Part shown: positions 82 through 47,048 of the stretch, piece after piece
How the letters are laid out: each line of letters starts with the position of its first letter
Position numbering within the stretch: position 1 is the first letter of the stretch
The notes under the pieces: model-generated
What the model was told of the DNA's origin: nothing
The model's database searches: none
The model's input: the letters and a program-made list of their open reading frames with translations, nothing else
Translations under genes and position numbers: made by a program
Origin: Takakia lepidozioides
Lineage: Eukaryota; Plantae; Bryophyta
DNA: 64,000 nucleotides
Direction: 5' to 3'
Assembly: GCA_030704615.1 (NCBI GenBank)
Contig: CM060734.1
Coordinates: forward strand, 54,932,001 to 54,996,000

Positions 82-549
82 TATCACGGACATAGCCCCG
101 AGGAACTTATCAGGAGTAAATACTAGAAGTTACCAAGTTACCATGTTACCGGAAGTTACCATGATTTACCGTGATTTACCATGATCTACCATGATTAACC
201 ATTATTTACCATAGGGGAAGCTTCTTAGGGAAGCTTCTTAGTAGCCAGTATATATAGGAGGCGAGACTGGGCACTCTTCAGTCTCACCAACACCAGTTCA
301 AGCTACTCTTGTTTTCAGTTCCCAGTACCCTAGCCCAGTTTCCAGTATCTGGTACTCCAGTCCAGTTTCCAGCATTCCAGTATTCAAATCGTGTTCCAAT
401 ATATTGTACCCTTGTTCATTGTTATAAAGATCGCTTTGATTCCTATTTACTCATCGTGCATACAGCCATGCCGACCTTGACTTCTTGCCTAGTCTTGTAC
501 CTCTAGTATGATCTCTTGTTTGTGTTCAGTCATGTTCTCGTCCTTGACA
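82..549 (+). repeat. 5' LTR of copy A
   Basis: Homologous to 9555-10149 and to 12741-13374 (-); ends CTTGACA; start TATCAC (TG mutated to TA); TATA at 249-256; shorter U3 than the other LTRs. Confidence 0.93.
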
Positions 550-551
550 GT

Positions 552-562
552 TTGGCGAGACT
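552..562 (+). promoter_or_regulatory. Primer-binding site TTGGCGAGACT, self-priming type
   Basis: 2 nt after the LTR end; exact reverse complement of the LTR 11-mer AGTCTCGCCAA (9880-9890; one mismatch at 280-290). Confidence 0.85.
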
Positions 563-608: not shown

Positions 609-1626
609 ATGGTCGCCACATTGCAGAGTCTTCAGCTCCAGATGCAAGAACTTCGTGCCTCTACTGCCCAACTACAAACTGATTTGTCTCAAGATCTTGG
701 CAACGCTCTAAACAATTTGTAACAACAAATTTCAGAGGTGAAGGAGTCGAACAATGGATCTTCAACCTTACGAGTCCCCACTACAACAAATCCTACTACA
801 ACGGTTCTTCCAAATCTTCAACAGATTACAAGGGCACCAAAGATCAGCATGCCCGAAAAATTTGATGGGACGAGATCAAGATTTCGCGGTTTTGTTCAAC
901 AAGTACGATTGTTCCTACGACTACATCCACAACACTACCCTGATGAAGGTATTCAAGTGGGATTTGTGGGCACCCTTCTATCCGGCACTGCCCTATCTTG
1001 GTTTGCACCGCTATTAGTGAAAATTCGCATTTACTATACAATTTTGAAGCGTTCATGTCCGAATTCACTGCAACGTTTGGAGAGAATGATAGAGAGAGAG
1101 TTACAGAGACCAAGATGCGAAATCTTCGACAAGGAGCACGTCCAGCTTCCGTTTATGCTGCCGAATTTCGACAACTTGCGTATGACCTCGACTGGAATGA
1201 GAAGAGTCTCATTAGTCAGTTTCGATGTGGCCTAAAAGATGATGTTAAAGATTTGTTGCTGACAATGTCAAATGTGAGTATACTGAGCGAATTCATCACC
1301 CAAGTCATTGCATGCGATAATTCGAAAGACGTCAAGAGAAGCGATCTGGATGGTCGACTACGCACCATGCCGCTGCTACTACGGCACCAAACACAACGAT
1401 CCATCAGACATCCGGTAATGATCCTATGCAGATTGATGCTGTCCGATTCAAGCCATTGATGCCACTAGAAAAACAAAGATGGCGCTCGAATGGATTATGC
1501 CTTTATTGCGGAGAAGATGATCACATAGCATTAAACTGCCCCAACAAGAGAAGATTCAAAGCTCGGGGAACAACTCAAGTATTTGATATGAGGAGGTCGG
1601 AAAACGAAGATGTCTAGTCACAGTAG
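609..1626 (+). pseudogene. gag: gag of copy A (PEG10/sushi-like capsid plus CCHC knuckle), disrupted
   Basis: ATGGTCGCC at 609; ORF pieces 738-1235, 998-1459 and 1426-1617. Confidence 0.88.
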
Positions 1627-4600
1627 GGACCATGCGGCTGGACACCCCAAATTCCTCACCAAAAAAAGGTCTATTTCTACCTCCAGACCATGTACCTTGT
1701 TTTACAGTTCCAGTAAAGATCAGGATGCAAAATCAAGATATCTCCATAGAATCACTTTAGGACTCGGGCGCTTCACCGGATTTTATTGACAAAGACTTTG
1801 CAAAGCAATACAATTTAACGCTCGTAAGAAAGAAATTCTCGGCCCCTGTTGAAGTCATCGATGGACGACCGTTAGCATCAGGAAATATTGACCATGAAAC
1901 TCAACCCCTTGAAGTGAAGCTTAAAAATCAAGCATCACATATTGTTTTCAATGTCATCCAGTCTCCAACAAATCCTGTGATCCTTGGACTTCCCTGGTTT
2001 GTACTTCATAATCCTGACATCGACTAGCGATCACGAAAAATTTCGGCAAGACAAAAATACAAAAGTACCAAATGTATTCAACCCCTGTTTCTTGGAGCTA
2101 GAGCCTTCATGAGAGCTAGGAAGAAAGACGTGACATTTGCACTTTATGCGACTCCGATCAAAACTACAACAGACCAAGATTTCAAGGATATCTTCGAGAA
2201 GAAAAATGCAAACATGTTGCCAGAACATCGACCTTATGATTATGCAATTGAGTTGCAAGAAGGAGCTCAAACACCATTCGGCCCAATCTACAATTTATCT
2301 CAGACAGAGCTGGCTGCTTTACGCGAATACATTGATGAAAATTTGTCAAAGAATTTCATTCGACATTCGAAATCACCCGCGGGAGCACCTATCTTATTTG
2401 TGAAGAAGAATGACGGATCGTTACGCATGTGTGTGGATTATCGTGGGCTCAACAATGTCACTATAAAAAATCGTTACCCATTACCGATGATTTCGGGACT
2501 CCTCGAACAACTTGGACGAGCAAATTTTTTCACAAAGATCGACTTGAGAGGAGCTTACAACCTTATACGAATAAAAGAAGAAGACGAATGGAAGACTGCT
2601 TTTCGCACAAGGTACGGACATTTCGAATATAGTGTTATGCCTTTCGGTCTTACAAATGCTCCAGCAATTTTTCAACATATGATGAATGACATCTTTCGAG
2701 AATTTTTAGATGACTTTGTAGTATCTATTTGGACGACATTTTGATATTTTCACATAATGCAAAAGAACATGGTCGCCATGTACGTCTTGTCCTTGATAAA
2801 TTGAGAGACAAAAGACCATATGCCAAGTTGGAAAAATATATTTTCCACCAATCTGAAGTCGAATTTTTGGGCTACATTATTTCCGACAAATGAGTCTTTA
2901 TGGATCAGAAGAAAATACAAACCATCATCGAGTGAATTAAACCAACTTCGATCCGATATGTACAATATTTTCTAGGATTTGCAAATTTCTAAAGAATCTT
3001 CATCAAAGACTACTCCAAAATTGTTGCACCATTGACACGACTCACAGGGAAGGACAAATTTGTATGGGACGAGAAGGCTAACCAAACATTTGAAAAGCTG
3101 AAGCATGCATTCACAACGGCTCTAATACTGGTACATGCAGACCCATCTAAACCATTTTTTTTTTGAAGCAGATGCATCGAACTTTGCACTTGGCGCGGTA
3201 CTCTCTTAATACGGTATAGATAGCCGACTTCCACCCTGTTGGTTTTCGTTCTCGCAAATTTTCCGCTGCGGAGATCAATTATGAAATCCATGACAAAGAA
3301 CTTCTAGCGATTATTGATGCTTTTGAGGAGTGACGCCATCTATTGGAAGGAGCTAAACATCATGTCATAATCTATATACCGATCACAAAAACCTCGAGTA
3401 TTTTATGAGTGCTCGTGTTTTGAATAGACGTCAAGCGAGATGGAGTGTGTCATTAGCAAGGTTTGATTTTGTTATTACTTACCGTCCCGGACATCTTCAA
3501 TAAAAACCATATGCTCTTTCTTGATGATCGTATCTTGCGCCAAAAGAAGGGGATGCAGCTTTTGACCAACAGAAATCCATCATTTTGAAACCAGCAAATC
3601 TCCAAGTGAATATGCTATCAATGTCCACCTATGACGATGTACAGATCATAAATGAGATCTAGGAAGCACTGAAGAGCGACCAATTTGCCACGACACTACG
3701 AAGTCAACTAAATCGACCTCGAAACAATCCACATGTTACAAATGACTTCGAATTCAAAGATGACTTATTTTATTTCAAGGGACTTCTCTATGTACCTCCA
3801 GGACCTATACGACTTCAAATTATTCAAACATGTCATGATATTCCAGTTGTAGGACATTTCGGCTTCAACAAAACCATAGAATTGATATCCATGGACTATT
3901 GGTGGCCATAGATGTGGAAACTCGTGACAGAATTTATAAAATCTTGCGACACGTGTGCTAGAGCGAAGAGACCACGACATCGACCTTACGGCCTTCTTCA
4001 ACCATTACCCATTCCCAATGGTCCAAGGTCGTCCGTGTCTATGGACTTTATTACGGACCTTCCAATTTCCAAGACCACCGATTCAATCCTTGTTATTGTA
4101 GATCGTTTTACGAAGATGACATATTTCATTCCATGTAATAAGACGGTTACCGGCGAGGAAACCGCAAGACTCTTCCTCAAATATATCTACCACATTCATG
4201 GACTCCCGAAGGACATCGTATTTGATCAAGGACCACAGTTCACATCAAATTTCTGGAGGGGATTATTTCACATATTGGATACTAAGATCAACTTCTCTAC
4301 AACTAATCATCCACAAACTGATGGTTAAACCGAACGTAGATTTTGGAACAGTATCTTCGCTGTACGATAAATTATCACCAAGATAATTAGACGGACCTTC
4401 TGTCATTGGTTGAGTTTGCCTACAACAACACTATACATTCTTCGACCAAACAAACTCCATTTTTCTCCAATTATAGTCATCATCCTCGAGCAAACCCTTT
4501 CCACATAAAGACTGTTGAAAACCCTGCTGCAGAAAACCTTGCTATTCATCTTGCTATGATTCACAAGGAGCTTATATTCCACCTCGCAGAAGCTCAAAAA

Positions 4601-5089
4601 TAATACAAAGACTATGCAGATCAACGTCGCCAACTCCAACCCCAATTCAAGGTCGGAGATCGTGTGTGGCTTCTTCGACGGGACATACAAACCTTGCGAC
4701 CATCAAGGAAGTTGTATTATCAACGCCTGGGACCATTCAAAATTATTCGACAAATAAATCCGGTCAGTTTTCGGCTTGAACTCCCACAAAGTATGCGCAT
4801 CCATCCAGTCTTTCATGTTTTATTATTGGAGTTGTATCATCCATCGAATATTCCAGGGAGAGTCTCCGTACCACCTCCACCAATCGAAGTCAATCAGGAA
4901 ATTGAGTATGAAGTCGACGAAGTCTTAGATTCTCGCATCAAGTATAAACGTCTTGAGTATTTCGTACATTGGAAAGGCTACGACATCAGTGAACGAACGT
5001 GGGAACCTTCATCCAACCTCGCCAATGCGTCTGACAAAGTCCAAGAGTTTCATCAACGATATCCAGCTAAGCCCCAAGTTGCATGTTAA
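1599..5089 (+). pseudogene. pol: pol of copy A (PR-RT-RH-IN-chromodomain), disrupted
   Basis: ORF pieces 2109-2744 (RT), 3912-4328 (IN), 4406-4603 and 4664-5089 (GPF plus chromodomain). Confidence 0.93.
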
Positions 5090-6880: not shown

Positions 6881-7008
6881 ATGTCAATAAGACGTCACAA
6901 CGATGATGTTAGTCAAGTTAGCTTCAAGGTGAAGACTCCACATTCAATGTACCTGATACATGCTAATGAGGGAGGAGCACCACACATCAGTATATGTAGG
7001 TACACTTC

Positions 7009-9022
7009 TATTCGTCTCTTTCTTTTATTCGTACAAGGTTGTAAGCTCCTCTCAAGTCGATCTTTGTGAAAAAATTTGCTCGTCCAAGTTGTTCGAGGAG
7101 TCCGGAAATCAGCGGTAGTGGGTAACGATTTATTATAGTGACTTTGTTGAGCCCACGATAGTCCACACACATGCGTAACGATCCGTCCTTCTTCTTCACA
7201 AATAAAATAGGTGCTCCCGTGGGTGATTTCGAATGTTGAATGAAATTCTTTGACAAATTTTCATCAATGTATTCGCGTAAAGCAGCCAGCTCCGTCTGAG
7301 ATAAATTGTAGATCGGGCCGAATGGTGGTTGAGCTCTTTCTTGCAACTCAATTGCACAATCATAAGGTCGATGTTTTGACAACATGTCTGCATTTTTCTT
7401 CTCCAAGACATCCTTCAAATCTTGATATTGAGTGGGTAATGTCGAAGTACCTTGGTCTGTTGTGGTTTTGATCGGAGTCGCATAAAGTGCAAATGTCGCG
7501 TCTTTCTTTGTAGCTCTCATGAAGGCTCTAGCTCCAAGAAACAGGGGTTGAATACCATTGGTACTTTTGTATTTTTGTCTTGCCGAAATTTTTCGTGATC
7601 GCTAGTCGATGTCAGGATTATGAAGTACAAACCAGGGAAGTCTAAGGATCACATGAGTCCTTGGAGACTGGAGGACATTGAAAACAATCTGTGATGCTTG
7701 ATTTTTAAGCTTCACTTCAAGGGGTCGAGTTTCATGGTCAACATTTCCTAATGCTAACGGCCGTCCATCGATGACTTCAACAGGGGCCGAGAATTTCTTT
7801 CTTATGAGCGTTAAATTGTGTTGCTTCGCAAAGTCTTTGTCAATAAAACACGCTTAAGCGCCCGAGTCCAAAAGTGCTTCTACGGAGATATCTCGATTTT
7901 GCATCCTGATCTTTACTGGAACTGTGAAACAAGATACATGGTCTGGAGGTACAAAGAGACCTTTTTTTGGTGAGGAATTTGGGGTGTCCAGCCGCATGGT
8001 CCCTACTGTGACTGGACATCTTCGTTTTCCGACCTCCTCGTATCGAACACTTGAGTGGTGTCTCGAGCTTTGAATCTTCTCTTGTTGGGGCAGTTTAATG
8101 CCATGTTATCATTTTCTCCGCAATAAAGGCATAATCCATTTGAGCGTCGTCTTTGTTTTTCATGTGGCGTCAATGGCTTGAATCGGACAACATCAATCTG
8201 CATATGATCGTTACCGGATGTATGATGGATCGTTGTATTTGGTGCCGTAGTAGCAACGGCATGGTGCGTTGTCGACCATCCAGATCGCTTCTCTTGACGT
8301 CTTTCGAATTATCGCATGCAATGACTTGGGTGATGAATTTGCTCAGTGTACTCACGTTTGGCATTGTCAGCAACAAATCTTTAACATCATCTTTTAGGCC
8401 ACATCGAAACTGACTAATGAGACTCTTCTCATTCCAGTCAAGGTCACACGCAAGTTGTCGAAATTCGGCAGCATAAACGGAAGCTGGACGTGCTCCTTGT
8501 CGAAGATTTCGCATCTTTGTCTCTGCAACTCTCTCTCTATCATTCTCTCCAAACGTTGCAGTGAACTCGGACATGAATGTTTCAAAATTGTGTAGTAAAT
8601 GCGAATTTTTCTCTAATAGCGGTGTAAACCAAGATAGGGCAGTGCTTGATAGAAGGGTGCCCACGAATCTCACTTGAATACCTTCATCAGAATAGCGTTG
8701 TGGATGTAGTCGTAGGAACAATCGTACTTGTTGAACAAAACCGCGAAATCTGATCTCGTCCCATCAAATTTCTCGGGCATGCTGATATTTGGTTCCCTTG
8801 TAATTTATTGAAGATTTGGAGGAACCGTTGTAGTAGGATTTGTTGTAGTAGGGACTCATAAGGTTGAAGATCCATTGTTCGACTCCTTCAACTCTAAAAT
8901 TTGTTGTTGCAAATTGTTGAGAGCATTGCCAAGGTCTTGAGACTGATCAGGTTGTAGTTGGGCAGTAGGCACAAAGTTTTTATATCTAGAGCTGAAGACT
9001 CTGCAATGTGGCGACCATTTCC
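7009..9022 (-). pseudogene. Inverted gag-protease-partial RT segment
   Basis: Reverse-complement homolog of about 605-2590; ORFs 8170-8721, 8003-8203 and 7008-7520 (-). Confidence 0.93.
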
Positions 9023-9097
9023 GCTAAGAAGGGAGTAGCACCACACATTAGTATATATAGGTACACTTCCAGCACTCTTGCATCTTGTATTGGCAGT

Positions 9098-9499: not shown

Positions 9500-9554
9500 G
9501 CAAGTCCAAGATTTTACCGCTCCTCGAGGAACTCGGCACTAGAGGAGGGGGTGA

Positions 9555-10149
9555 TGTCACGGACATAGCCCATAAGAACTTACCAGAAGTAAATACCAGA
9601 AGTTACCAAGTTACCATGTTACCATGACTTACCGAGATTTATCATGATCTACCACGATTTACCATTACTTACCAAGTTACCGGGCGTTTACCAAATTACC
9701 AAGAGTAACTTGGGAAACTACTTAGGAAGCTTCCTTTGGAGGAAACTTCTCCATCAAGATACCTCCCTTGTTTAAGGAAGCTTCTCCATCAAGAAACCTT
9801 TGTTTAATCTTGGAAACTTCTCCAGCAAGAAACCTTCTTAGTAGCCAGTATATATAGGAGGCGAGACTGGACACTCTTCAGTCTCGCCAACACCAGTTCA
9901 AGCTACTCTTGTTTCCAGTTCCCAGTACTCTAGCCCAGTTTCCAGTATCTGGTACTCCAGTCCAGTTTCCAGCATTTCAATATTCAAGTCGTGTTCCCAT
10001 ATCTTGTACTCTTGTTCATTGTTATAAAGATTGTCTTGATTCATATTTACTCATCGTGCATTCGGCCACGCCGACCTTGACTTCTTGTCTAGCCTTGTAC
10101 CTCTAGCCTTATCTCTTGTTTGTGTTCAGTCATGTTCTCGTCCTTGACA
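9555..10149 (+). repeat. 3' LTR of copy B
   Basis: TGTCAC...TTGACA termini, preceded by PPT; TTACC-rich U3; TATA at 9849-9856. Confidence 0.95.
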
Positions 10150-11434: not shown

Positions 11435-13374
11435 TTGGGAATGGGTAATGGTTGAAGAAGGCCGTAAGGTCAATGTCGTGGTCCCTTCGCTCTAGCACAC
11501 ATGTCGCAAGAGTTTATAAATTCTTTCACGAGTTTCCACATCTGCGACCACCAATAGTCCCTGGATATCAATCCCATTGTTTTGTTGAAGCTAAAATGTC
11601 TTGCAGTCGGAATATCATGACATGTTTGAAGAATTCGAAGTCGTGTAGGTCCTGGAGGTATATAGAGAAGTCATTTGAAATAAAGTAAGTCATCTTTGAA
11701 CTCGAAGTCGTTTGTAACATGTGGATTGTCTCGAGGTCGATTTAGTTGACTTCGTAGTATCGTAGCAAATTGGTCACTCTTCAGTGCTTCCTGAATCTCC
11801 TTTATGATCTCCGCATCGTCATAGGTGGACATGGATAGCATATTCAATTGGAGATTTGGTGGTTTCAAGATGATGGATTTCTGTTGGTCAAAAGCTGCAT
11901 CCCCTTCCTTTGGCGCAAGATACGATCGTCGAGAAAGAGCATCTGGTTTTCCTTGAAGATGTCCAGGACGGTAGGTAATAATAAAATCAAACCTTGCTAG
12001 TGACATACTTCATCTTGCTTGACGTCGATTCAAAACATGAGCACTCATAAAATACTCGAGGTTTTTGTGATCGGTATAGATAGTGACCTGATGTTGAGCT
12101 CCCTCCAATAGATGACGCCACTCTTCAAAAGCATCGATAATCGCTAGAAATTCTTTGTCATGGATTTCATAATTGATCTCCGTAGCGGAAAATTTGCGAG
12201 AACGAAAACCAACAGGGTGAAGTCGGCCATCTGTACCGTATTGAGATAGTACCGCGTCAAGTGCAAAGTCCGATGCATCTGCTTCCAAAAAGAATGGTTT
12301 AGATGGGTCTGCATGTACCAGTATTGGAGCCGTTGTAAATGCCTGCTGCAGCCTTTCAAATGTTTGGTCGGCCTTCTCGTCCCATACAAAGTTGTCCTTC
12401 CCTGTGAGTTGTGTCATTGGTGCAGCAATTTTGGAGTAGTCCTGGATGAAGATTCTATAGAAATTTGCAAATCCTAGAAAACATTGTACATCTCGGACCG
12501 AAGTTGGTTTAACCCACTCGATGATGGTTTGCATTTCCTTCTGATCCATAAAAACTCATTTGTCGGAAATAATGTAGCCCAAAAATTCGACTTCAGATTG
12601 GTGGAAAAGACATTTTTCCAACTTGGCATATAGTCATTTTTTCCCTCAATTTATCAAGGACAAGGCGTACATGGTGACCATTTCCGCAAATGTGTCTTCC
12701 ATCTTAACTAACTAAGGAACAAACTTTAGTCTCGCTAAACTGTCAAGGACGAGAACATGACTGAAGACAAACAAGATATAAGACTAGAGGTACAAGGCTA
12801 GACAAGAAGTCAAGGTCGGCGTGGCCGAATGCACGATGAGTAAATATGAATCAAGACGATCTTTATAACAATGAGTAAATATGAATCAAGACGATCTTTA
12901 TAACAATGAACAAGAGTACAAGATATTGGAACATGACTTGAATACTGGAATGCTGGAAACTGGACTGGAGTACCAGATACTGGAAACTGGGCTAGAACAC
13001 TGGGAACTGGAAACAAGAGTAGCTTGAACTGGTGTTGGCGAGACTGAAGAGTGTCCAGTCTCGCCTCCTATATATACTGGCTACTAAGAAGCTTCCCCTA
13101 TGGAGGTTTCTTGCTGGAGAAGTTTCCAAGATTAAACAAAGGTTTCTTGATGGAGAAGCTTCCTTAAACAAATGAGGTATCTTGATGGAGAAGCTTCCTC
13201 CAAATGAAGCTTCATGAGTAGTTTCCCAAGTTATTCTTGGTAATTTGGTAAACTCCCGGTAACTTGGTAAGTAATGGTAAATCGTGGTAGATCATGGTAA
13301 ATCTCGGTAAGTCATGGTAATTTCTGGTATGGTATTTACTCATGATAAGTTCTTTATGGGCTATGTCCGTGACA
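11435..13374 (-). mobile_element. Chromovirus copy C: internally deleted and truncated (5' LTR, PBS, RT 3' end, RNase H, IN zinc finger)
   Basis: LTR 12741-13374 (-); PBS 12728-12738; ORFs 12010-12549 (RNase H: [20 protein letters not shown]) and 11671-12006; 35-bp tandem duplication in the LTR at 12836-12905. Confidence 0.93.
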
Positions 13375-20427: not shown

Positions 20428-21035
20428 AGAGTCAGATGCAGACAGCTTGTTGGCATATCAAGATCAGCTTTAAAAATATTTCTTTCTGTGCCGTATTTTC
20501 CTAGCATCACTTCCCCGAATTTCTTCTTTTGATCACTCACATATATCAGTCATGAATGCAGACGTCTGTGGTGCTCCTGGCTGTGAGGTTCTTGCTCTCA
20601 GTTGTTATGATCGGTACGTTCCTCATGGGCTTCACCAAACATTTGAAGTCAGATTGGGGGGGCTAATTCGCAAGCGCAAGACTTGTTCGGGAAGATGCAG
20701 AGCTTTCCGGGGGCCATGTGGCTTGGCTCGGTTGTTTTGTGACGCTCATCGTCGCAGAGCTTGCATGGCTACCCTTCAAGCCACGATAGGCGAGAGAGAC
20801 GACCCCATGGATGAAACTGGATGAATGAGAGGTACCCTGACGGACGCACTGATGGATGATATGTTTAGGAAATCAATTATTTCTGATTTAAAAGTTTCTC
20901 ACGGCCCCTAAGTGAATGAAATTGAATGAATAGAAAGGATGAATAGATAATATTCACGATATTCATCCTCCCACATCCACTAATCAGACCAGACGGTTGC
21001 TCAACTGTCATCCCTTTGTCCTCTTGGTCTTCCTC
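20428..21035 (+). repeat. ~600-bp inverted duplicate of 44100-44716, with a frameshifted copy of a 77-aa ORF
   Basis: Reverse-complement identity throughout; G7 versus G6 run at about 20656. Confidence 0.9.
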
Positions 21036-21862: not shown

Positions 21863-24154
21863 TCACTGTCTGGAATGTTCAGCAAACTTGGCTAAAGACC
21901 GAAGTTCTTCTACAAAAGAAGCCAAGTTCTTGTTGGAAGAGCCGCCGGGCGCTACAGCATTTCGTGCTATAACACTCAGATCCTTCACATTTTTCCTCAA
22001 CATCTCTCCCCTCTCATCTCCCATCAGAAGCCTCGCGGCCCTCTCTACCTCCTCTTTGCCAACCACTCCATCAGATCCCTCGAGCACCCCAACAGCAACT
22101 TTTATTACATCGACCACAAGCATTTTGTTCATGTGTTGCTCAGCTTCGATCAGCCAAGCTATCATGGGCACGGCCATGCAAATGCTCTCCACTGTGGAAT
22201 TCCACCCACAGTGGGTCAGGAAACCTCCAACTGCGGGATGGGCAAGGATCTGCAACTGTGGTGCCCACACACAGAACACTATTCCCTGCTTCTTAGTCCT
22301 CTCCATGAAACTTTCAGGGAGGAAGGCAGAGATGTGGGGCACTGGGTCAACTTCACTACCTTGTGGAACTCTGAGTACCCAAAGGAAATTCTGCCCACTC
22401 ATCTCAAGCCCGAGAGCAAGTTCATGAATCTGTGTGGCAGAGAGAGAAGCTATGCTTCCAAAGGAGATATACAGAACGGATGAGGTTGGCTGTGTGTTCA
22501 ACCAGTCTATGCACTCATGCTTGTCTGAACTCACTTGCGGTTGGTTGTTCAACCTGTTTTCCTTGGTGCCACCAAGTACTGTGGGTCCCACAGTAAAGAC
22601 CCTAGGCACCTGCAAACAACAGTCCAATTTCATGTAAATAATATCCAGTATGTATAAAGCTTTCATAATCGCTGGAGCTGTAAGGATGCAACTAACATGT
22701 TGTCACGAATTGACATACCATTTTGCTTCCAGCTTCCATGATTCAACAAGGTCACAAAGATACCCTTCACTTCAGCTATTCAAATCGCTGGACCCAAGGT
22801 CTAAATAGCTGAGAGCTTGTCATCAAATCTTTACTGAACTAAGCTAAGATTTAGTATTCTAGTCAGTGGAGCAGATGCATAATTCTTCTTTGGCTTAATC
22901 CAAAGGTGACCGACGTGCTCTCTCACCTTGCAATATCTTCTCTCTCGCACATCTCTCTCTTGAGTCTGTCACATTGTTGGTCACTAACCCCTTGAATTTT
23001 TCTCTCCATGGTCGCTCTTCGCTTTGCAGAAGTCAAGTGTGAGGGTATCCTAGTCTAAGTCAGTTCCAACTCTGCCATGTAACATTCCTGTACAAAGTCG
23101 AAATACTGACCTTACTCATCTTCGAGCCACTACAAAGTACATCTCGAAGCCCTTCCATAACGGCAGATTCCAGTTCATAAACACCATCCACAAGCACCCC
23201 AGCAGCTACCCACAACCTGTTCGCAGCAACAATGCGTGTGACATTTTGTGAGCGCATGGGTCGAGGCATGTCGTGAGGTTTGATGGGAGGAAACCCCGGG
23301 ATGACATATGGAGCCTGGTCATCTGCCACAGGAATCTGACCTTGTGCAATGAAAGAGCGCAAGTGGTATAGCAGGGAAATAAAATGTGGTGAATTTTCCA
23401 GACAATATCTTGGAATTGAATACTTGGTAGCTGTAACCTGCCATTCAAGTTGCGTCACTCGTGAGGTGTAAGCTTATGGAAATAGTCAAATACTATCTAG
23501 CAGAAATTTTGTACATCTTTTTCAGGCTAGCTCACTAGATCACCAGCATGCTTTTGGTGAGTGAATGGAAGGCCTCAATGATCCCACTTTAATATGGTAA
23601 TCTTCGCAACTCAAGCTTAGTCATTATAATACAGAGTGGCATGTACAAGATTTCTAGATTGTTGTAACCAGTGTCAAACATAAATGGACAGGCGGAACTT
23701 ACAAATGAAACACTGAATCAAAGCTCTCTTGTACTGCAATGCAATCATACCTGAGTCCAATCCATGAACATGTCGGAGATGATGCATACAGGAGGACTCA
23801 CGAGGGTAGCGGGTTCATCAGTGAACTTAAGAGTTCTTCAAAGGATCCTTTTATGATGGGTGATGCAAATGCCCTCCTCAGGTCTTGAATGCTTGAACTG
23901 TTTACAGCTGCATATTCCGCGGACAGCTCAAGAGCTACCACATGCAAATTGTGGCTGAATCCAAATCCCTTGTCATCAGTCAGTGCTCGTTTCACGCTGG
24001 AGAGATGTGGGGTCGTGGTCACAAAGGTGACAGTGACGCCATAGCTAGCCAAGATCTTCGATAATTGCACGCATCGGTTCACGTGGCTCGCCGCTGGAAA
24101 GGGGAAGGTAACCACATGGGGTACTGGAAGGAGTTTAGATGCCTCAATCACCAT
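21863..24154 (-). pseudogene. Family-1 UDP-glycosyltransferase, 3 exons (24154-23751, 23437-23111, 22609-21863), with a 1-nt frameshift in exon 1
   Basis: PHVVTFPFPAASHVN N-terminus, PVCIISDMFMDWT, VLYISFGS, PSPG box WAPQLQILAHPAVGGFLTHCGWNS...EAEQ; GT-AG introns; exon 1 is 404 nt with TGA at 23798. Confidence 0.88.
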
Positions 24155-26199: not shown

Positions 26200-29100
26200 T
26201 GGCTATGGCATCTACAACAGGTTATGGGCCCACGGGTTGACACAGAAGTTGTACCGTAGGAACTTGTTTGTCTGATTCTGGTAAAGCCATTCTTAGACTG
26301 TTTAGCAAGAAAGTGTCAGATGCTTAACAAGAAGTTAAGCTATAGTTGTCAGATGCTTAACAGGAAGTTAAGCTATAGTTGTCCAATTTTAGTTTAGAAT
26401 TGAGATAGTTTTTCAAGAATAGGTTGATAACTAACTCAATATCTAGATTGGAAGAGATTGTACATCTATTGCAAAGATGAGTTCTAAAGAGGACGTAGGC
26501 AAAGAGTTTGAGACAGTTAACAAGTTTGTCGGTGAGAACTTCTATTTGTGGAAATTCCACATGAAATTTGTATTAGAATCAAGAGATCAATTCACCATTG
26601 TTTCTGGTGAAGAGAAGTTGAATGATACTGCTACTGAAGCGGTGTGGAAAATATGGGCATTGGGCTAAAGAGTGCAGCTCTAGTTCTTCTAAGAAGACTG
26701 ATATGGAGGTATCCACGAGTGAGGTGAACGTGACCGAGACAGATGTTTTTGTTACAATTGCAGAGATTCTAGAGCATCTAGTGTTTGAGAGTCAAGATTT
26801 GAGAGAACCAGGTGCTGAAAAAAAACCAACTGTAACTACCGAGGAGACTGAAAATGAGGCAAATTATGTTCATCTTACAAGTCAGGATGAGGCTTGGTTT
26901 GCTGATACCGGAGCATCCCAGCACATGACGGATAAGAGGTGTTGATTTAAGTCCTACCGAGTAGTTCGACCTAGAAGCTGGAGCGTCAGAGTAGCAAATG
27001 ACAACCTAGTCTGGGCGGCAGGAGTAGGGGACATAGAGATTGTGTCTCTCCTTAATGGTACCTGGCATAAAGGCATCATTAAAAATGTTCTTCATGTTCC
27101 TAAACTGAGAAAGAATCTACTATCAGTTGGTCAGATAACCGACAGAGGAATTGTAGCTGTGTACCACAAGAGCACTTGCTCTATGTTTTCTCCTACCAGA
27201 AGATTAGTCATGATAGGAGTTGAAGATGGTCAGTTGTGGCGCATGCAGTTCAAAGTAGTTCTCCCTACACAGACAGCAAATCTAGTAGTTCTAGAGTACA
27301 AAGCCGAACCCGAACACGATGAACTTGTGAAAAAAAGAAAAACGCCAGGACCTCCTGGTGAGAGTCTTAGTGTATGGCATGTTAGGCTTGGGCATGTTCA
27401 CTATGATATGGTGAGAAAGATGAATCTCAAAAATTTGGTCACGGGCTTGCATCTCAAAGAGACAAACACAGAGAAAGTTTTTTGTGAGAGTTGTGCTAGA
27501 GGTAAGAGTTGTAGAACACCATTTCCCGTGAAAGAACAGAGAGAAAAAACACCATTGCCTGGTGAATTTTATCATGCAGACGTTTGTGGTCCAATGAGCA
27601 CTACATCTCAAGGAGAAGCTCATTACTTTGTATCTTTTTAAGATGATTGCAGTAGTTACTGGTTGCTGTACTGCATCAAGAAAAAATACGACGTTATGGA
27701 ATGTTTCAAGAAGATGCAGCAAGAGTCCTTCAGGTCGACTGGGAATTGAGTCATCAAATTACGGAGTGACAGAGGTGGAGAATTCATAAGCAAAGCTTTT
27801 AAAGAGTATCTTGAGACTGAGGGAATTCGTCAAGAACTCACCACACCCTATTCTCCAGAGCATAATGGGGTGGCAGAAAGGGACAATCGTACCCTTATGG
27901 AAAGTGTGCGCTGCATGCTTCTGGAGAAAGATATTTCTCTTTGTTTTTGGGGGGAAGCTGTACAGACAGCGGCATACCTAATGAATCGTGTTGAAACTAG
28001 AACACTGAATGGGATGACACCACTACAAGCATGGTGTAACAAGAAGCCTGATGTCACACATCTCAAAGTGTTTGGCTGCGATACATTTATTCACGTGCCT
28101 AAACAGCTTAGAGAGAAGCTTGATCCAAAGAGCACCAAGTGCATTTTTCTTGGATATTGCACTGAAAGCAAGGGTTATAGACATAGAATTGTGATTAGCA
28201 GAGATGTACTGTTCAACGAAGGTTTGATGGGCTCTGAATTTGAAGCAGCTCCTACAGTATTGCCCAATGCATCGGAAACAGTGACATTCTGGCATAATTA
28301 TGACAAAGCTGTGGAGAAGTCACAACATTCAGTTGGAGTTTACAATGAAGCTGAAAGAGTCCCTGTCAACACCATTCCAGTGAATGACTTGGTGGTGGAG
28401 ATGCCACTTGAAGCTGTTGGTTCTGAAAGCGTCACTATCAACACCATTCCAATGAATGACTTGGTGGTGGAGTTGCCACTTGAAGCTGTTGGTTCACTAG
28501 TGAAAGTAGTAATATTGAGACTAGCTCTAACACATAAAGCAATGTTTCATTGATGCAGTCAAACAGTGGGAGTACGATTGCAAAGCCAGAAATGTTCTCA
28601 AGAAAAAAACGTTCATGGAATCCTCCGGAGACGTATGGGGATTGGATTTCTCTGCCAGGAACTTTTACCTATTTTGCTGGAGCAGTGGGAGTTATTCTTG
28701 AAGAGCCCGCGCGCCGCGTCTGGAAGGTGTAGCAGAATCGGAGAAGCGATTTGGGATAATGCCAAAAACATATGAAGAAGCAATTTTTTCTTATCACCGA
28801 GAGCAGTGGGAGCAGGCAATGATAGAAGAATACAAATCGCTCTTGGCAAATGAGACCTGGAAGCTTTGTGAACTACCTGTTGGCAGACAAGCAGTCAAAA
28901 GTAAATGGGTTTATAGAACCAAACTCAAAGCAGATGGGACCATTGATCGTTATAAGGCCAGAGTTGTAGCTAAAGGCTTTTCGCAAACTCGTGGAGTTGA
29001 TTACGATCAAACCTTTGCTCCAGTAGCAAAATTTGACTCAATTCGTTCAATCTTATCCATTGCTGCAGTGGAAGATATGGAGCTTGTTCAATTTGATGTC

Positions 29101-31415: not shown

Positions 31416-32769
31416 ATGGAAGTGGCAGTGACTGTCCTATCAAAAACCATGGTGGTCCCCACGCCACGTCCTCACGAGAGCCGGGAGTTGCAGCGGCTCC
31501 CACTTACCAGCTTCGATCTTCTCAAGCTAAATATTCCCCCCATCCTTCAGTAGCACCGACGCCATGGTGACTATATGTTTATCGAGGCTTCAGCTCCCAT
31601 CACTGCGCGGGAGCTACGTAATTACAACATGTTTGACATTTATCAACACTTTGCCCAAGCAATACCCTTCAATCGGTGAGCTTCTATTTCAGGTGTGAAG
31701 GTGATGATCACGTGCAGTAGTATAGCTTAGCACTTTGTTTAGTGCAGATGCGACCCCAAGTCGAGTTGCGGAGTGATATTGATTCTCTTTGAAATACGCA
31801 GATCACTCATCCGTGTGGCGGCTATGCACTTGGTCATGCCTACTTTCATGGAATGGCAATGGAATGATGCTGTGGGCATTTATCAAGTCATGGACAGAGG
31901 TCGCCCGTGGGGACCGTATCTCCCTTCTTCCCAATTTTAGTTCGCAAGTGAATGTAATCAAATTGGCATCAGAGTTAGGCGACTCAGATTGGACAGAAAT
32001 TGCCCTTCCAGAGGCTTTTGTGAAGAGAGTACCGAGGGCGGAATATATTCGTAATCGTTGCGTCCAGGATTCAAAGCGTCCTCATCCGACTGCCGTGGAC
32101 TCAACAACTTTGCACATTTCTTTTGATCTGCCAATGCAAAAGAAGCTCAAAGACAAAGCATTGGAGGATTCAGATGGGCCTACGTTCAGTGCTTCTGTAG
32201 TGATCAGTGCACATGTCTGGAGGGCCATTATCCGTGCTCGATTGCTTGCAGATACGGAGGAAACTCGATACTTCAATAACGTCGATTGCCGGAAAAGGTG
32301 GCCAGAGCTCCCTGAGAATTATTTTGGAAATGCAGTTTTTGACGCAGTGGCAGTCACCACCGTGAGAGAGCTTCTGGGTAAGAGGATCTCATATGCTGCA
32401 AACCTGCTGCGCAAGACGATTGCAGATCTCACCGCTCAGAACATCAAGTCTGTTTTTACCATGATGGAGAAAGTGAAAAAGGAATGGGTCTTTATCCGTG
32501 ATTTCCGACCTTCAACTGATGTGAGGACAGCTGCTTCGGTTCGCTTCCCAGGTCCTGAACAGCTTGACTTCGGATGGGGATCCGCTTTTGCCAACATTAT
32601 TGTATTCTCCAAGAGGGCCCCTCGAAATATTGTCAGTTTCACACCAAAGCACACCGATGGCACAATAGAAATAAACTTCAGACTGCCTGAGGATGCTGCA
32701 AAGAGACTGCAGGAAGATTCAGACTTCATGTCTTGTGTCTCATCTGTCACCGCTGTCACACTTGGATAG
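31416..32769 (+). pseudogene. BAHD acyltransferase, disrupted
   Basis: N-terminus MEVAVTVLSKTMVVP...LPLTSFDL followed by a stop; intron ~31693-31801; Q-ITHPCGG...FHGMA(D)G with a 1-nt deletion; YFGNAV and DFGWG motifs in ORF 31789-32769. Confidence 0.88.
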
Positions 32770-43907: not shown

Positions 43908-44360
43908 CATAGTATTACAAAAGCCAATACCAATAGGGTCCCTTATTCAATACCCTGGTTGATACCCTGCCAGACCCTATATTGAGGCCAACACTGGTAC
44001 AAACTACAAACTTAGTGCGCTCATCCCCGCTTTCTCAACATGTGCTGCTGTATGGTAATCTATGATGTAAGCAAAGGGAGCGAAGGATCGCACGCGGTAG
44101 AGGCGACGAAGAGGACAAAGGGGATGACAGTTGAGCAACCGTCTAGGTCTGATTAGGGGATGTGGGAGGATGAATATCGTGAATATCATTTATTCATCCT
44201 TTCTATTCATTCACTTTCATTTATTTTGGGAAGGGGCCGTGAGAAACTTTTAAGTCAGAAATAAATAGAAATTTTGATTTGTTAAACATATCATCCATGA
44301 GTGCGTCCGTCAGGGTGCCTCTCATTCATCCAAATTCATCCATGGGGTCGTCTCTCTCGC

Positions 44361-44594
44361 CTATCGTCGCTTGAAGGGTAGCCATGCAAGCTGTGCGACG
44401 ATAAGCGTCACAAAACAACCGAGCCAAGCCACATGGCCCCCCGAAAGCTCTTGCATCTTCCCGAACAAGTCTTGCGCTTGCGAATTAGCCCCCCAATCTG
44501 ACTTCAAATTTTTGGTGAAGCCCATGAGGAACATACCGATCACAGCAACTGAGAGCAGGAACCTCACAGCCAGGAGCACCACAGACGTCTGCAT
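44361..44594 (-). CDS. Putative 77-aa protein with two hydrophobic segments
   Basis: Open ORF MQTSVVLLAVRFLLSVAVIGMFLMGF...VAWLGCFVTLIVAQLAWLPFKRR; frameshifted paralog starting at about 20556. Confidence 0.3.
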   Translation of the reverse strand: MQTSVVLLAVRFLLSVAVIGMFLMGFTKNLKSDWGANSQAQDLFGKMQELSGGHVAWLGCFVTLIVAQLAWLPFKRR

Positions 44595-44984
44595 TCATGA
44601 TCATATATGTGAGTGATCAAAAGAAGCAATTCGGGGAAGTGATGCTGGGAGAATGCGGCGCAGAAAGAAATATTTAAGGCTGATCTTAATATGCCAACAA
44701 GCTGTCATCCTGACTCACGACTGTAGCTCGAGTCTAGAATATAAGGCGGCGCCTGCTCTTGAAAGGGAAAATCTTCTGAACATCTCTTCCATATATAAAA
44801 ATGTTCTAGCCTTTTGCAATGCTCCTCTTCAGGGTGTCCCCAACTTCCTAAGATCCCGGTGGATGTGGGCGAACTTAGGTTCTCACTTCTCACCTGGGGG
44901 ACAAAAACTAGAATGGGAGGGATAGCCTGCTACAGCTTATACACAAAGGTTTTGAATCGCCCAAAAGGTCAGATGATGGACTGC

Positions 44985-46133
44985 TCATACCTGTCTGCTG
45001 TTCACTTGGTCGTTCTGTTTGAGGGTCTTCACGAAATCGGACAATGCTTGAGATTGCTCCAACATTACTCTGTCTATCATAGCCATTTGGCTTTTTTCGA
45101 GTTGTTGGACCATAGCTCCGAATGCAATTAAGGCACTAACGATGTTGGGCTCCTCGGGAAATCGCCTACTTGAACACTCACCCTTACGTTTCCTTAAAGT
45201 GGGATTTCCTGCAACTCTTAGTATAGCAGCAATGACAGACTTGGTGCTTCGGTTGTCTAGAACTTGTTTCTCAGTCTCTTTATCAGATGGAGCAGTCGGT
45301 CTTCGCTTTTGTTTTAAGCAAAAATTGGATTCACTGCGAGGGGTTATAGCGGGTGAGGGTCTCTCTTTTGGGAACAATTTCGTTGTTCTTGTTCTTAGTC
45401 CCCCCTTTTGATTGTGGAATAAGGCTTCCTCTTCCTCTTTTGGCAAGGTCACGTGGAAATGAGCTCTGACTCCTTCCATGCTTGGCCGCTCTTCCTCGAG
45501 ATCTCCACTACGATTTGATTCATGCCCGCTGGTAGTCGATTCTATTTGCTCATCATCGATAGCAGGCCTGTCCAAACCTGCAACATTATTCTTCGGGGTG
45601 TCTCCAAGATTTGCGTCCAGTAAGTCGTACCACTCCCAACTACTGCGAGGGAAATCTTTATTCCCCACCTTTTCTCTGTAATACCGCTTTTTCAAAGACT
45701 TCACCTTCTGTCTGCATTGCAAGGCACCCTTGGCCTGCTTTGTACCACCACATCTGGCACTCACTTCTGCCGAAACTTGACACCAATGCTTCGTAGTCAA
45801 TTTGCGCTTGTCAACAGCATTGTACTTTTCGTCCCATGAAGTTAACAGTGACGAGACTGCACATGGGCTCCAATCCTCATTCTGTAACTCCATCTCGTTC
45901 TCACCTTGTATACAGTATCTTCCGGGCCCAGCACCGGCCTCATTCCATTCATCGTAATTCTCCATAATCTCTCCACATTTTTGTGTCAAGCAGCTGGATA
46001 TGGGCCCAAAATCTGACTCGTTCCATTCTGCTTCTTTCTCGTCTTCTTCTTTAATCCCTTTTTGAGATAACTTGGTACTAATTATGTGCCCATACTCGAT
46101 ATGATCCGTCGCTGTACTGCTACCTCCATCCAT
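44985..46133 (-). CDS. Trihelix transcription factor (Myb/SANT-like, SIP1/ASIL-like), intronless
   Basis: WS...LL..W...HW..VS..V...K...QCRQKVKSLKKRY..EK...W.WYDLLD; C-terminal helical domain; first ATG at 46133. Confidence 0.88.
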   Translation of the reverse strand: MDGGSSTATDHIEYGHIISTKLSQKGIKEEDEKEAEWNESDFGPISSCLTQKCGEIMENYDEWNEAGAGPGRYCIQGENEMELQNEDWSPCAVSSLLTSWDEKYNAVDKRKLTTKHWCQVSAEVSARCGGTKQAKGALQCRQKVKSLKKRYYREKVGNKDFPRSSWEWYDLLDANLGDTPKNNVAGLDRPAIDDEQIESTTSGHESNRSGDLEEERPSMEGVRAHFHVTLPKEEEEALFHNQKGGLRTRTTKLFPKERPSPAITPRSESNFCLKQKRRPTAPSDKETEKQVLDNRSTKSVIAAILRVAGNPTLRKRKGECSSRRFPEEPNIVSALIAFGAMVQQLEKSQMAMIDRVMLEQSQALSDFVKTLKQNDQVNSRQV

Positions 46134-47048
46134 CGAAACAATCACCGCGTCTTCTAAGTTCTTAACTAGTAAGTTCTCTCTAAATTCACCAGGGTCTCAG
46201 TGTTTTCATGAATGTAATTCACAGCTCATTGTTGGTAGCTGTACTCTGTGTGTGTGATGATCAGTACCAACCGCTTACAGGGTTTCTTTACGCTTAGATC
46301 TTTGGTAGTCCAATGTAAAGCTACATCTCAGCAAATCGCACTACTGGGGCATCCCCCCACCCTCTCACTGTTTCCATGAATGGGATTCAACCTTAGCTTT
46401 CAGGAGAACCACTCATGACTGCGTCTTCAGAATGTGTGCGTGGTGGCTACCACCTTGTTCTCGATCTATACACTAGAAAAGGTCTTAACTTCAAGCACTG
46501 GAGAGTTGCTTTCTGGAGAGCACCTTGCAGTGGAGACGATTGAGGAAGAGGAGATCTAACCTTTGAGAAGTCCCCCCTATATCTCGCCAGGCCTTTTCAA
46601 ATCTTCGACCCCTTCACCAGATCTGCAGACATGCTCCCTCTCCGCAAGGTCGGCAGGTGGAGTGACAGACCAGTCAGGAGAGGGAGAAGGTACGAGCGGC
46701 AATTTTTATTGGCAAACGATATGGGATATATCATAATTAGTATTCGTTGATGGTAGCACGGTTCCCTGAACGGAATAAGGTCGGCATTCGCCTCAAAATC
46801 CACTCTTATATCGACACATGGCGACAGCTTATAATGGTAAGTCCTGCCTCAGGAGCTGAGGTGGCAGCACGAGAACTCTGTTCGGAACACGTTGACTGCT
46901 CCATGTGTAACCTTCCTTACTAGTGTCTCTTTTCCTCTTCGTGTCCTCCGGACAGTTCTCGCTGCAGGACACTCTTCACGCGTTCTTTCCGCTCCAAGTT
47001 TGCTGTGATCGAACACTCCCTAGCTGTTTTCCTGTTTGTTTCTTGATT

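Follow-up and report, generated by a model that had tools for sequence, protein, structure and literature searches.

A U3 inverted repeat that may mask the self-primer in Tf1/sushi-type LTR retrotransposons

The Takakia element and its LTRs

The stretch of DNA analysed here, referred to as the window, consists of 64,000 nucleotides from Takakia lepidozioides (assembly GCA_030704615.1, contig CM060734.1, positions 54,932,001 to 54,996,000 of the forward strand). It contains the remains of an LTR retrotransposon, with three LTRs (A, B, and C) and broken gag and pol genes (Table 1). Pfam domains are found in the broken frames (gag, RVT_1, RT_RNaseH, rve, SH3_Tf2-1, and Chromo), and the gag and pol frames overlap near positions 1593–1617. 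The domains follow the Ty3/gypsy order RT-RH-IN and end in a C-terminal chromodomain, an arrangement expected of Tf1/sushi chromoviruses. The Chromo match has an E value of 4.9e-16, and Y, W, and Y are seen in its translation in a pattern that was compared by eye with that of PpatensLTR2. We take these three residues to be the aromatic-cage positions of a Group I chromodomain. The named gag matches are from the fern Ceratopteris (55–63%). This is a chromovirus of the Tf1/sushi type, probably of the Tcn1 clade, and its primer-binding site (PBS) is self-complementary over 11 nt.

Table 1. Positions of the element's parts within the window
Feature	Position	Strand	Remarks or basis
LTR A, 5' LTR	82..549	+	first TG altered; U3 ~130 nt shorter; mismatch at 286
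Hairpin in LTR A	260..288	+	one mismatch
PBS, 2 nt past LTR A	552..562	+	complements the LTR's own 11-mer
Broken gag and pol (gag, RT, integrase, SH3, chromodomain)	723..5089	+	Pfam; tblastn with a relative
Polypurine tract preceding LTR B	9541..9554	+	sequence
LTR B, 3' LTR (TG...CA)	9555..10149	+	after polypurine tract; no longer matches LTRs A and C past ...TGACA
TATA box (predicted)	9849..9856	+	31 nt before primer; TATATATA
U3 arm of hairpin	9860..9871	+	10 Watson-Crick pairs, then G-U, A-U
3' arm of hairpin	9877..9888	+	U3 −3 to −1 plus primer +1 to +9
Self-primer copy, 11 nt (predicted R start, +1 = 9880)	9880..9890	+	exact complement of PBS 552–562
R segment predicted to pair with U5 end beside PBS (U5-IR-like duplex)	9892..9902	+	co-fold with 530–570
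PBS of LTR C	12728..12738	-	private change at 12736
LTR C, 5' LTR	12741..13374	-	
Hairpin in LTR C	13037..13065	-	perfect

The pieces of the element are rearranged (7005–9027 and 11435–12681, both minus strand). An inverted gag-RT segment lies within a plus-oriented 3' region, and RNase H-integrase begins almost immediately beyond LTR C and its PBS. Comparison of the LTR flanks yielded no matching target-site duplication. LTR C carries a 35-nt tandem duplication in R/U5 (12835–12905). Elsewhere in the window are an inverted 600-bp repeat (20429–21029 and 44105–44716, 91%), each copy of which has a 10-bp internal inverted repeat, and a Myb/SANT-like ORF (44985–46196). Part of a UDP-glycosyltransferase lies at 21863–22702. 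The remnant of a copia-like pol, with integrase ahead of RT-side SH3, is at 26946–28553, and a duplicated block contains a BAHD-type transferase (31783–32769).

Self-primer and predicted transcription start

The PBS is located 2 nt beyond both LTR A and LTR C and is complementary to an 11-mer within the LTR itself. No single copy in the window has both primer and PBS unmutated: LTR A is altered in the primer and LTR C in the PBS, at position 12736, where the other letter accounts for 99% of the depth in run X1. The same layout, an LTR-adjacent PBS complementary to an LTR 11-mer, occurs in 22 related loci. The distance from TATA to +1 is 31–32 nt in 13 of 13 relatives having the canonical hairpin described below. 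In Tf1, the RNA's initial 11 bases pair with the PBS and are removed by RNase H (PMC7175516). The TATA spacing and the analogy with Tf1 lead us to infer that transcription starts at 9880.

The self-priming leader of Tf1 is described as a three-duplex 'pretzel', also predicted for Tj1, Tosmo1-3, and Tcry1 (PMC10085805). Co-folding of the Takakia leader predicts the central and U5-side duplexes; a third duplex is not predicted consistently. The element likely self-primes reverse transcription from the first 11 bases of its RNA.

A hairpin between TATA and the primer

In LTR B, the U3 sequence GGCGAGACTG (9860–9869) is complementary to CAGTCTCGCC (9879–9888) across a 9-nt loop, exactly where an earlier note on this DNA had placed both arms. 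The U3 arm is found in each of the three LTRs, at 260–269 (+), 9860–9869 (+), and 13065–13056 (-). The same note had assigned a 10-bp stem to all three; this stem is perfect in LTRs B and C only, as a G>A change at 286 in the R arm of LTR A introduces a C-A mismatch. As RNA, the stem of LTR B is 12 bp in length and closes a loop of 5 nt, with a folding energy of −23.1 kcal/mol (z −3.55) that is equalled by 1 of 200 shuffles. The arm spans primer positions +1 to +9 and U3 positions −1 to −3, and so covers the 11-mer only in part.

The arm had also been described as a mimic of the PBS. It does match the PBS, over 9 nt only; its tenth base pairs with U3 −1, and the base that follows the PBS is different. 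Because pairing with −1 holds in 8 of 8 arm/primer types, whatever base follows the PBS, the arm is a local complement of −3 to +9 and not a displaced PBS. We considered a transposed copy of the PBS as its source and ruled it out on these grounds.

Perfect 10-bp inverted repeats with loops of ≤15 nt number five in the window, as compared with ~0.8 per shuffled 64 kb. Stem length is therefore weak evidence when taken alone, and the argument against chance comes from position and from relatives. Of 80 positions in and near the hairpin, just 3 show variation of ≥1% (run X1, 313 contigs; run X5, 30 contigs), but the whole promoter stretch is invariant in these runs and the low variation is therefore not specific to the arm.

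Related elements

A gag alignment search provided 80 loci, comprising the best 78 of 364 metagenome matches and 2 loci from a genome collection; two scans of viral contigs found no relatives. L079 and L080 are gag-bearing retrotransposon contigs in two bacterial assemblies and are likely eukaryotic contamination. Primers were called from complementarity to the PBS, blind to U3, and 22 of 34 calls were kept. In 11 loci a 5'-UTR inverted repeat was a candidate primer, which was ruled out by a motif linked to the TATA box. This TATA-linked motif was used for 18 loci of a large group (12 with a visible PBS) and for 2 further LTRs. The 5' UTRs of L012, L025, L028, L045, and their relatives have a 12-bp inverted repeat, its halves 225 nt apart, which closes a long predicted leader hairpin upstream of gag.

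A scorable LTR was present in 42 of the 80 loci, and neither primer nor motif was callable in the other 38. L012, L018, and L045, whose primer was not recovered, were left out, and L044 was dropped for having neither a TATA box nor a primer match at its likely PBS. With the window included, the LTRs form 16 types (14 clusters at 75% identity, L062, and L074). In L008, L009, and L063, a second copy of the LTR continues across the PBS, which suggests a collapsed assembly; these copies do not confirm the LTR ends.

Covariation of the U3 arm with the primer

The earlier note had named covariation of the U3 motif with primer and PBS in related families as a check on its proposal, and we were able to follow such covariation across five primers and two gag clades. 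When anchored at +1, 14 canonical sequences represent 8 arm/primer types and 5 primers, which differ at up to 7 of 9 positions. Pairing is retained in 77 of 80 arm/primer cells (75 Watson-Crick and 2 G-U). Differences between primers, compared pairwise, are matched on both sides in 44 of 45 instances, although these comparisons are not independent. Single three-way changes, affecting arm, primer, and PBS together, distinguish close pairs (the window from L001, and L008/L009 from L048). A count in a single register gives 69.9% paired positions (0 of 500 shuffles), an understated value that mixes two clades lying 2 nt apart.

The outer end of the stem is fixed at +9, with a loop of 8 nt in one clade and 9–10 nt in the other. 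In the second clade, identity is 85% in the arm versus 28% in the spacer and 57% in the loop; in the first clade, the entire stretch from TATA to R is conserved, and the arm is consequently not distinct. As judged from these sequences, the U3 inverted repeat is a conserved but optional cis-element.

Matched changes can also arise without selection, through quasi-palindrome correction, and the repeat could have arisen neutrally, when reverse transcriptase switched template by fold-back, and be kept matched in this way. Such an origin would suit the patchy distribution of the repeat and its position at a site where reverse transcriptase resumes synthesis. It is at odds with the constant stem length and outer boundary, and with the retention of the same G-U pair by all 5 loci of one LTR type, among which gag proteins differ by up to ~0.9 changes per site, since correction should erase such pairs. 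We consider a neutral origin improbable.

Wobbles within the 12-bp stem, read on the plus strand, comprise four G-U and no A-C pairs, and there are three purine-purine mismatches as well. This polarity is suggestive of pairing in the plus sense. It also bears on a promoter-level function, in which the repeat would act as a DNA hairpin or cruciform between TATA and initiator, or as a check that disables transcripts begun upstream of +1. The hairpin is placed exactly in the interval from TATA to +1, each of the DNA strands folds, and choice of start site controls Tf2 activity (PMC5341516). However, a cruciform predicts no strand bias, and the wobbles favour the plus strand by 4 to 0; there are also LTR types with the same TATA spacing but no hairpin. 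A role in the promoter appears rather improbable.

Distribution among LTR types

Masking was scored as the energy required to open the primer; a count of paired primer bases saturates. By this measure, a U3 hairpin over the primer is significant in 9 of 16 LTR types (p 0.002–0.028 versus 500 shuffles). Six types (13 loci and the window) have the canonical hairpin. The other three (4 loci) have a variant geometry, with the arm directly before +1 and paired to the 3' half of the primer (+6 onward). The variant falls in a third gag clade and has the same masking outcome as the canonical form.

Masking is not significant in the remaining 7 of 16 types (L026/L034, L060, L063, L072, L062, L074, and the large group). 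In this last group, the most numerous with 18 loci, 2 of 18 reach p<0.05 and 16 do not. The absence of the hairpin from seven types means that it is not essential for self-priming, and the idea of it as a general requirement is not supported. On a gag tree of 18 rows, loci with the canonical form make up two groups and those with the variant another; the data do not reject one common origin for the canonical form (p-AU 0.074). The LTR types thus cannot be counted as independent, and a fair count is three clades.

Several loci show other structures near the primer. One LTR of the mostly unmasked group (L047:5901–5960) has a 7-bp arm over primer positions +3 to +9, and changes in one strand of this stem are matched in the other (10.6 kcal/mol, p 0.01). 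In L026 (2168–2190), L060, L072, and the 18-locus group, the 3' half of the primer can fold onto a conserved R motif just downstream. This fold involves no U3 arm, has a 4–6-bp stem and an ACCA loop (~3 kcal/mol), and might be a weaker, U3-independent mask. L026/L034 have a strong hairpin wholly in U3, between TATA and +1, that ends at −1 and leaves the primer uncovered (L026:2137–2167). This U3-only hairpin suggests that a hairpin at the border may have a role regardless of masking.

The L026/L034 hairpin is also what would be expected if the structure were mainly a landmark or pause site for minus-strand transfer, with masking incidental. Strong-stop cDNA would end at +12 and land just past the base of the stem. 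The two canonical clades have the outer end of the stem at +9 alike, although their loop registers are shifted by 2 nt. The stem of the variant geometry, on the other hand, passes +12 into the landing zone, and several types are without a strong border hairpin. A landmark function is quite unlikely as the main explanation.

Predicted masking of the 3' primer copy

With 30 nt of U3 included, the predicted cost of opening the primer rises from 0.4–4.1 to 7.7–16.3 kcal/mol (all 13 canonical loci, the 4 variant loci, and LTR B). For one representative of each of the nine positive types, the cost with U3 is 7.7–15.2 kcal/mol, versus shuffle means of 2.8–5.2 kcal/mol. When U3 arms are exchanged among unrelated families, mostly no masking is predicted. 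Addition of U3 also changes the predicted binding of the LTR B copy to the U5/PBS leader, from −14.1 to −4.3 kcal/mol. The corresponding weakening is 6–12 kcal/mol in 9 of 9 relatives with the hairpin and about −0.4 to 3 kcal/mol in four without it.

One arm lies in U3, and hence the stem is possible only where U3 is transcribed. An RNA begun at 9880 would have no U3 arm at its 5' end and would carry the arm only at its 3' end. The 11-mer at the 5' end would pair with the PBS and be cut after base 11, as in Tf1. The R copy at the 3' end also includes, further downstream, the stretch predicted to pair with the end of U5, and if unmasked it could replace the 5' copy; cutting it would destroy the acceptor for minus-strand transfer. 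The U3 hairpin would hide this copy and leave only the U3-less 5' copy for the PBS, serving as an aid to fidelity rather than as an essential part. We give a probability of somewhat under one half (about 0.47) to this model, in which the genomic RNA forms the hairpin at its 3' end and thereby conceals the second copy of the primer.

The proposal that the 3' copy is masked agrees with the folding predictions, which show masking only with U3. That this copy 'cannot compete', as the earlier note put it, is itself a prediction, with an estimated residual binding of −6 to +1 kcal/mol among canonical loci; at some loci the masked copy would, on balance, still bind favourably (−6.4 kcal/mol for LTR B). 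Primer positions +10 and +11 and the downstream arm remain free. Folding during transcription should also put the 5' copy on the PBS long before the 3' copy exists, and seven types, including the most numerous group, manage without the hairpin.

The stem would equally block a snap-back in plus-strand DNA, so the 3' end of the RNA is not its sole possible site of action. In single-stranded plus-strand strong-stop DNA, the terminal copy of the PBS could snap back onto the R primer and self-prime a dead-end product, which the arm would block. Calculated with DNA parameters, the predicted snap-back in 10 of 10 hairpin loci falls from 0.24–0.97 to 0.0–0.39 once 35 nt of U3 are included; in 4 of 4 loci without the hairpin it does not change. 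The plus-strand bias in G-U/G-T pairs fits DNA equally well. For Tf1, ~50% of the cDNA is reported to retain a single-stranded PBS at the 3' end (PMC11042837). Points against are the lower stability of G-T pairs in DNA and the usual pairing of the strong-stop strand with the minus strand; R would be free only upon strand displacement, as occurs in Ty elements. We consider it unlikely that the hairpin acts mainly in DNA.

Masking of the primer in one nucleic acid or the other, as modeled here, has a somewhat better than even chance of being correct. A broader proposal is that a switch discriminating between ends has arisen repeatedly among self-priming LTR retrotransposons, in which a U3 arm, possible only where U3 is transcribed or copied, locks all primer copies except the true 5' one. 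Such a switch would protect the 3' acceptor and plus-strand DNA and disable read-through transcripts; a single clade would contain two or more geometries and as many as three origins. We put this forward tentatively, and think it rather more doubtful than masking itself.

Comparison with known self-priming elements and retroviral R structures

As in the Tf1/Tf2 elements of S. pombe, the 11 nt at the predicted start of R complement a PBS just past the 5' LTR; the end of U5 is predicted to form a neighbouring duplex. The Tf1/Tf2 structure, in contrast, is described as lying wholly within the 5' UTR, and the available portions of those descriptions mention neither a U3 arm nor masking of a 3' copy. 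The element resembles Tcn1 plant chromoviruses in having relatives in non-seed plants, a chromodomain, a gag/pol overlap, and predicted self-priming (PMC2864245, PMC6317226). Self-priming has been predicted for 83% of 1500 Tcn1 elements (Neumann 2019, PMC6317226). In the parts available, the Tcn1 descriptions include the self-primer only, and no U3 hairpin (Novikova 2010, PMC2864245; Neumann 2019, PMC6317226). The earlier note knew of no description of such a switch, and we likewise found no mention of a U3 arm that covers the self-primer in the available text of the literature on self-priming retrotransposons (PMC2864245, PMC6317226, PMC10085805, PMC3601003, PMC11042837, PMC5341516, PMC7175516, PMC4600332). 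The U3 hairpin over the self-primer is thus apparently an undescribed cis-element in a known kind of self-priming retrotransposon.

Self-priming poses a problem that is absent in tRNA-primed elements, as the primer sequence occurs at each RNA end and again within the cDNA. How the wrong copy of the primer is kept unused is not stated in what was available of the self-priming literature, and a covarying U3 arm provides a concrete answer. Related families with and without the arm are natural contrasts. The hairpin also marks the border between U3 and R in these LTRs.

The TAR and poly(A) hairpins of HIV-1 are R-region structures that lie within R and are present at both RNA ends. The U3 hairpin is similar to these in being a structure of the repeat region that would behave differently at the two ends of the RNA. 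It is unlike them in having one arm in U3 and, as the partner of that arm, the primer itself.
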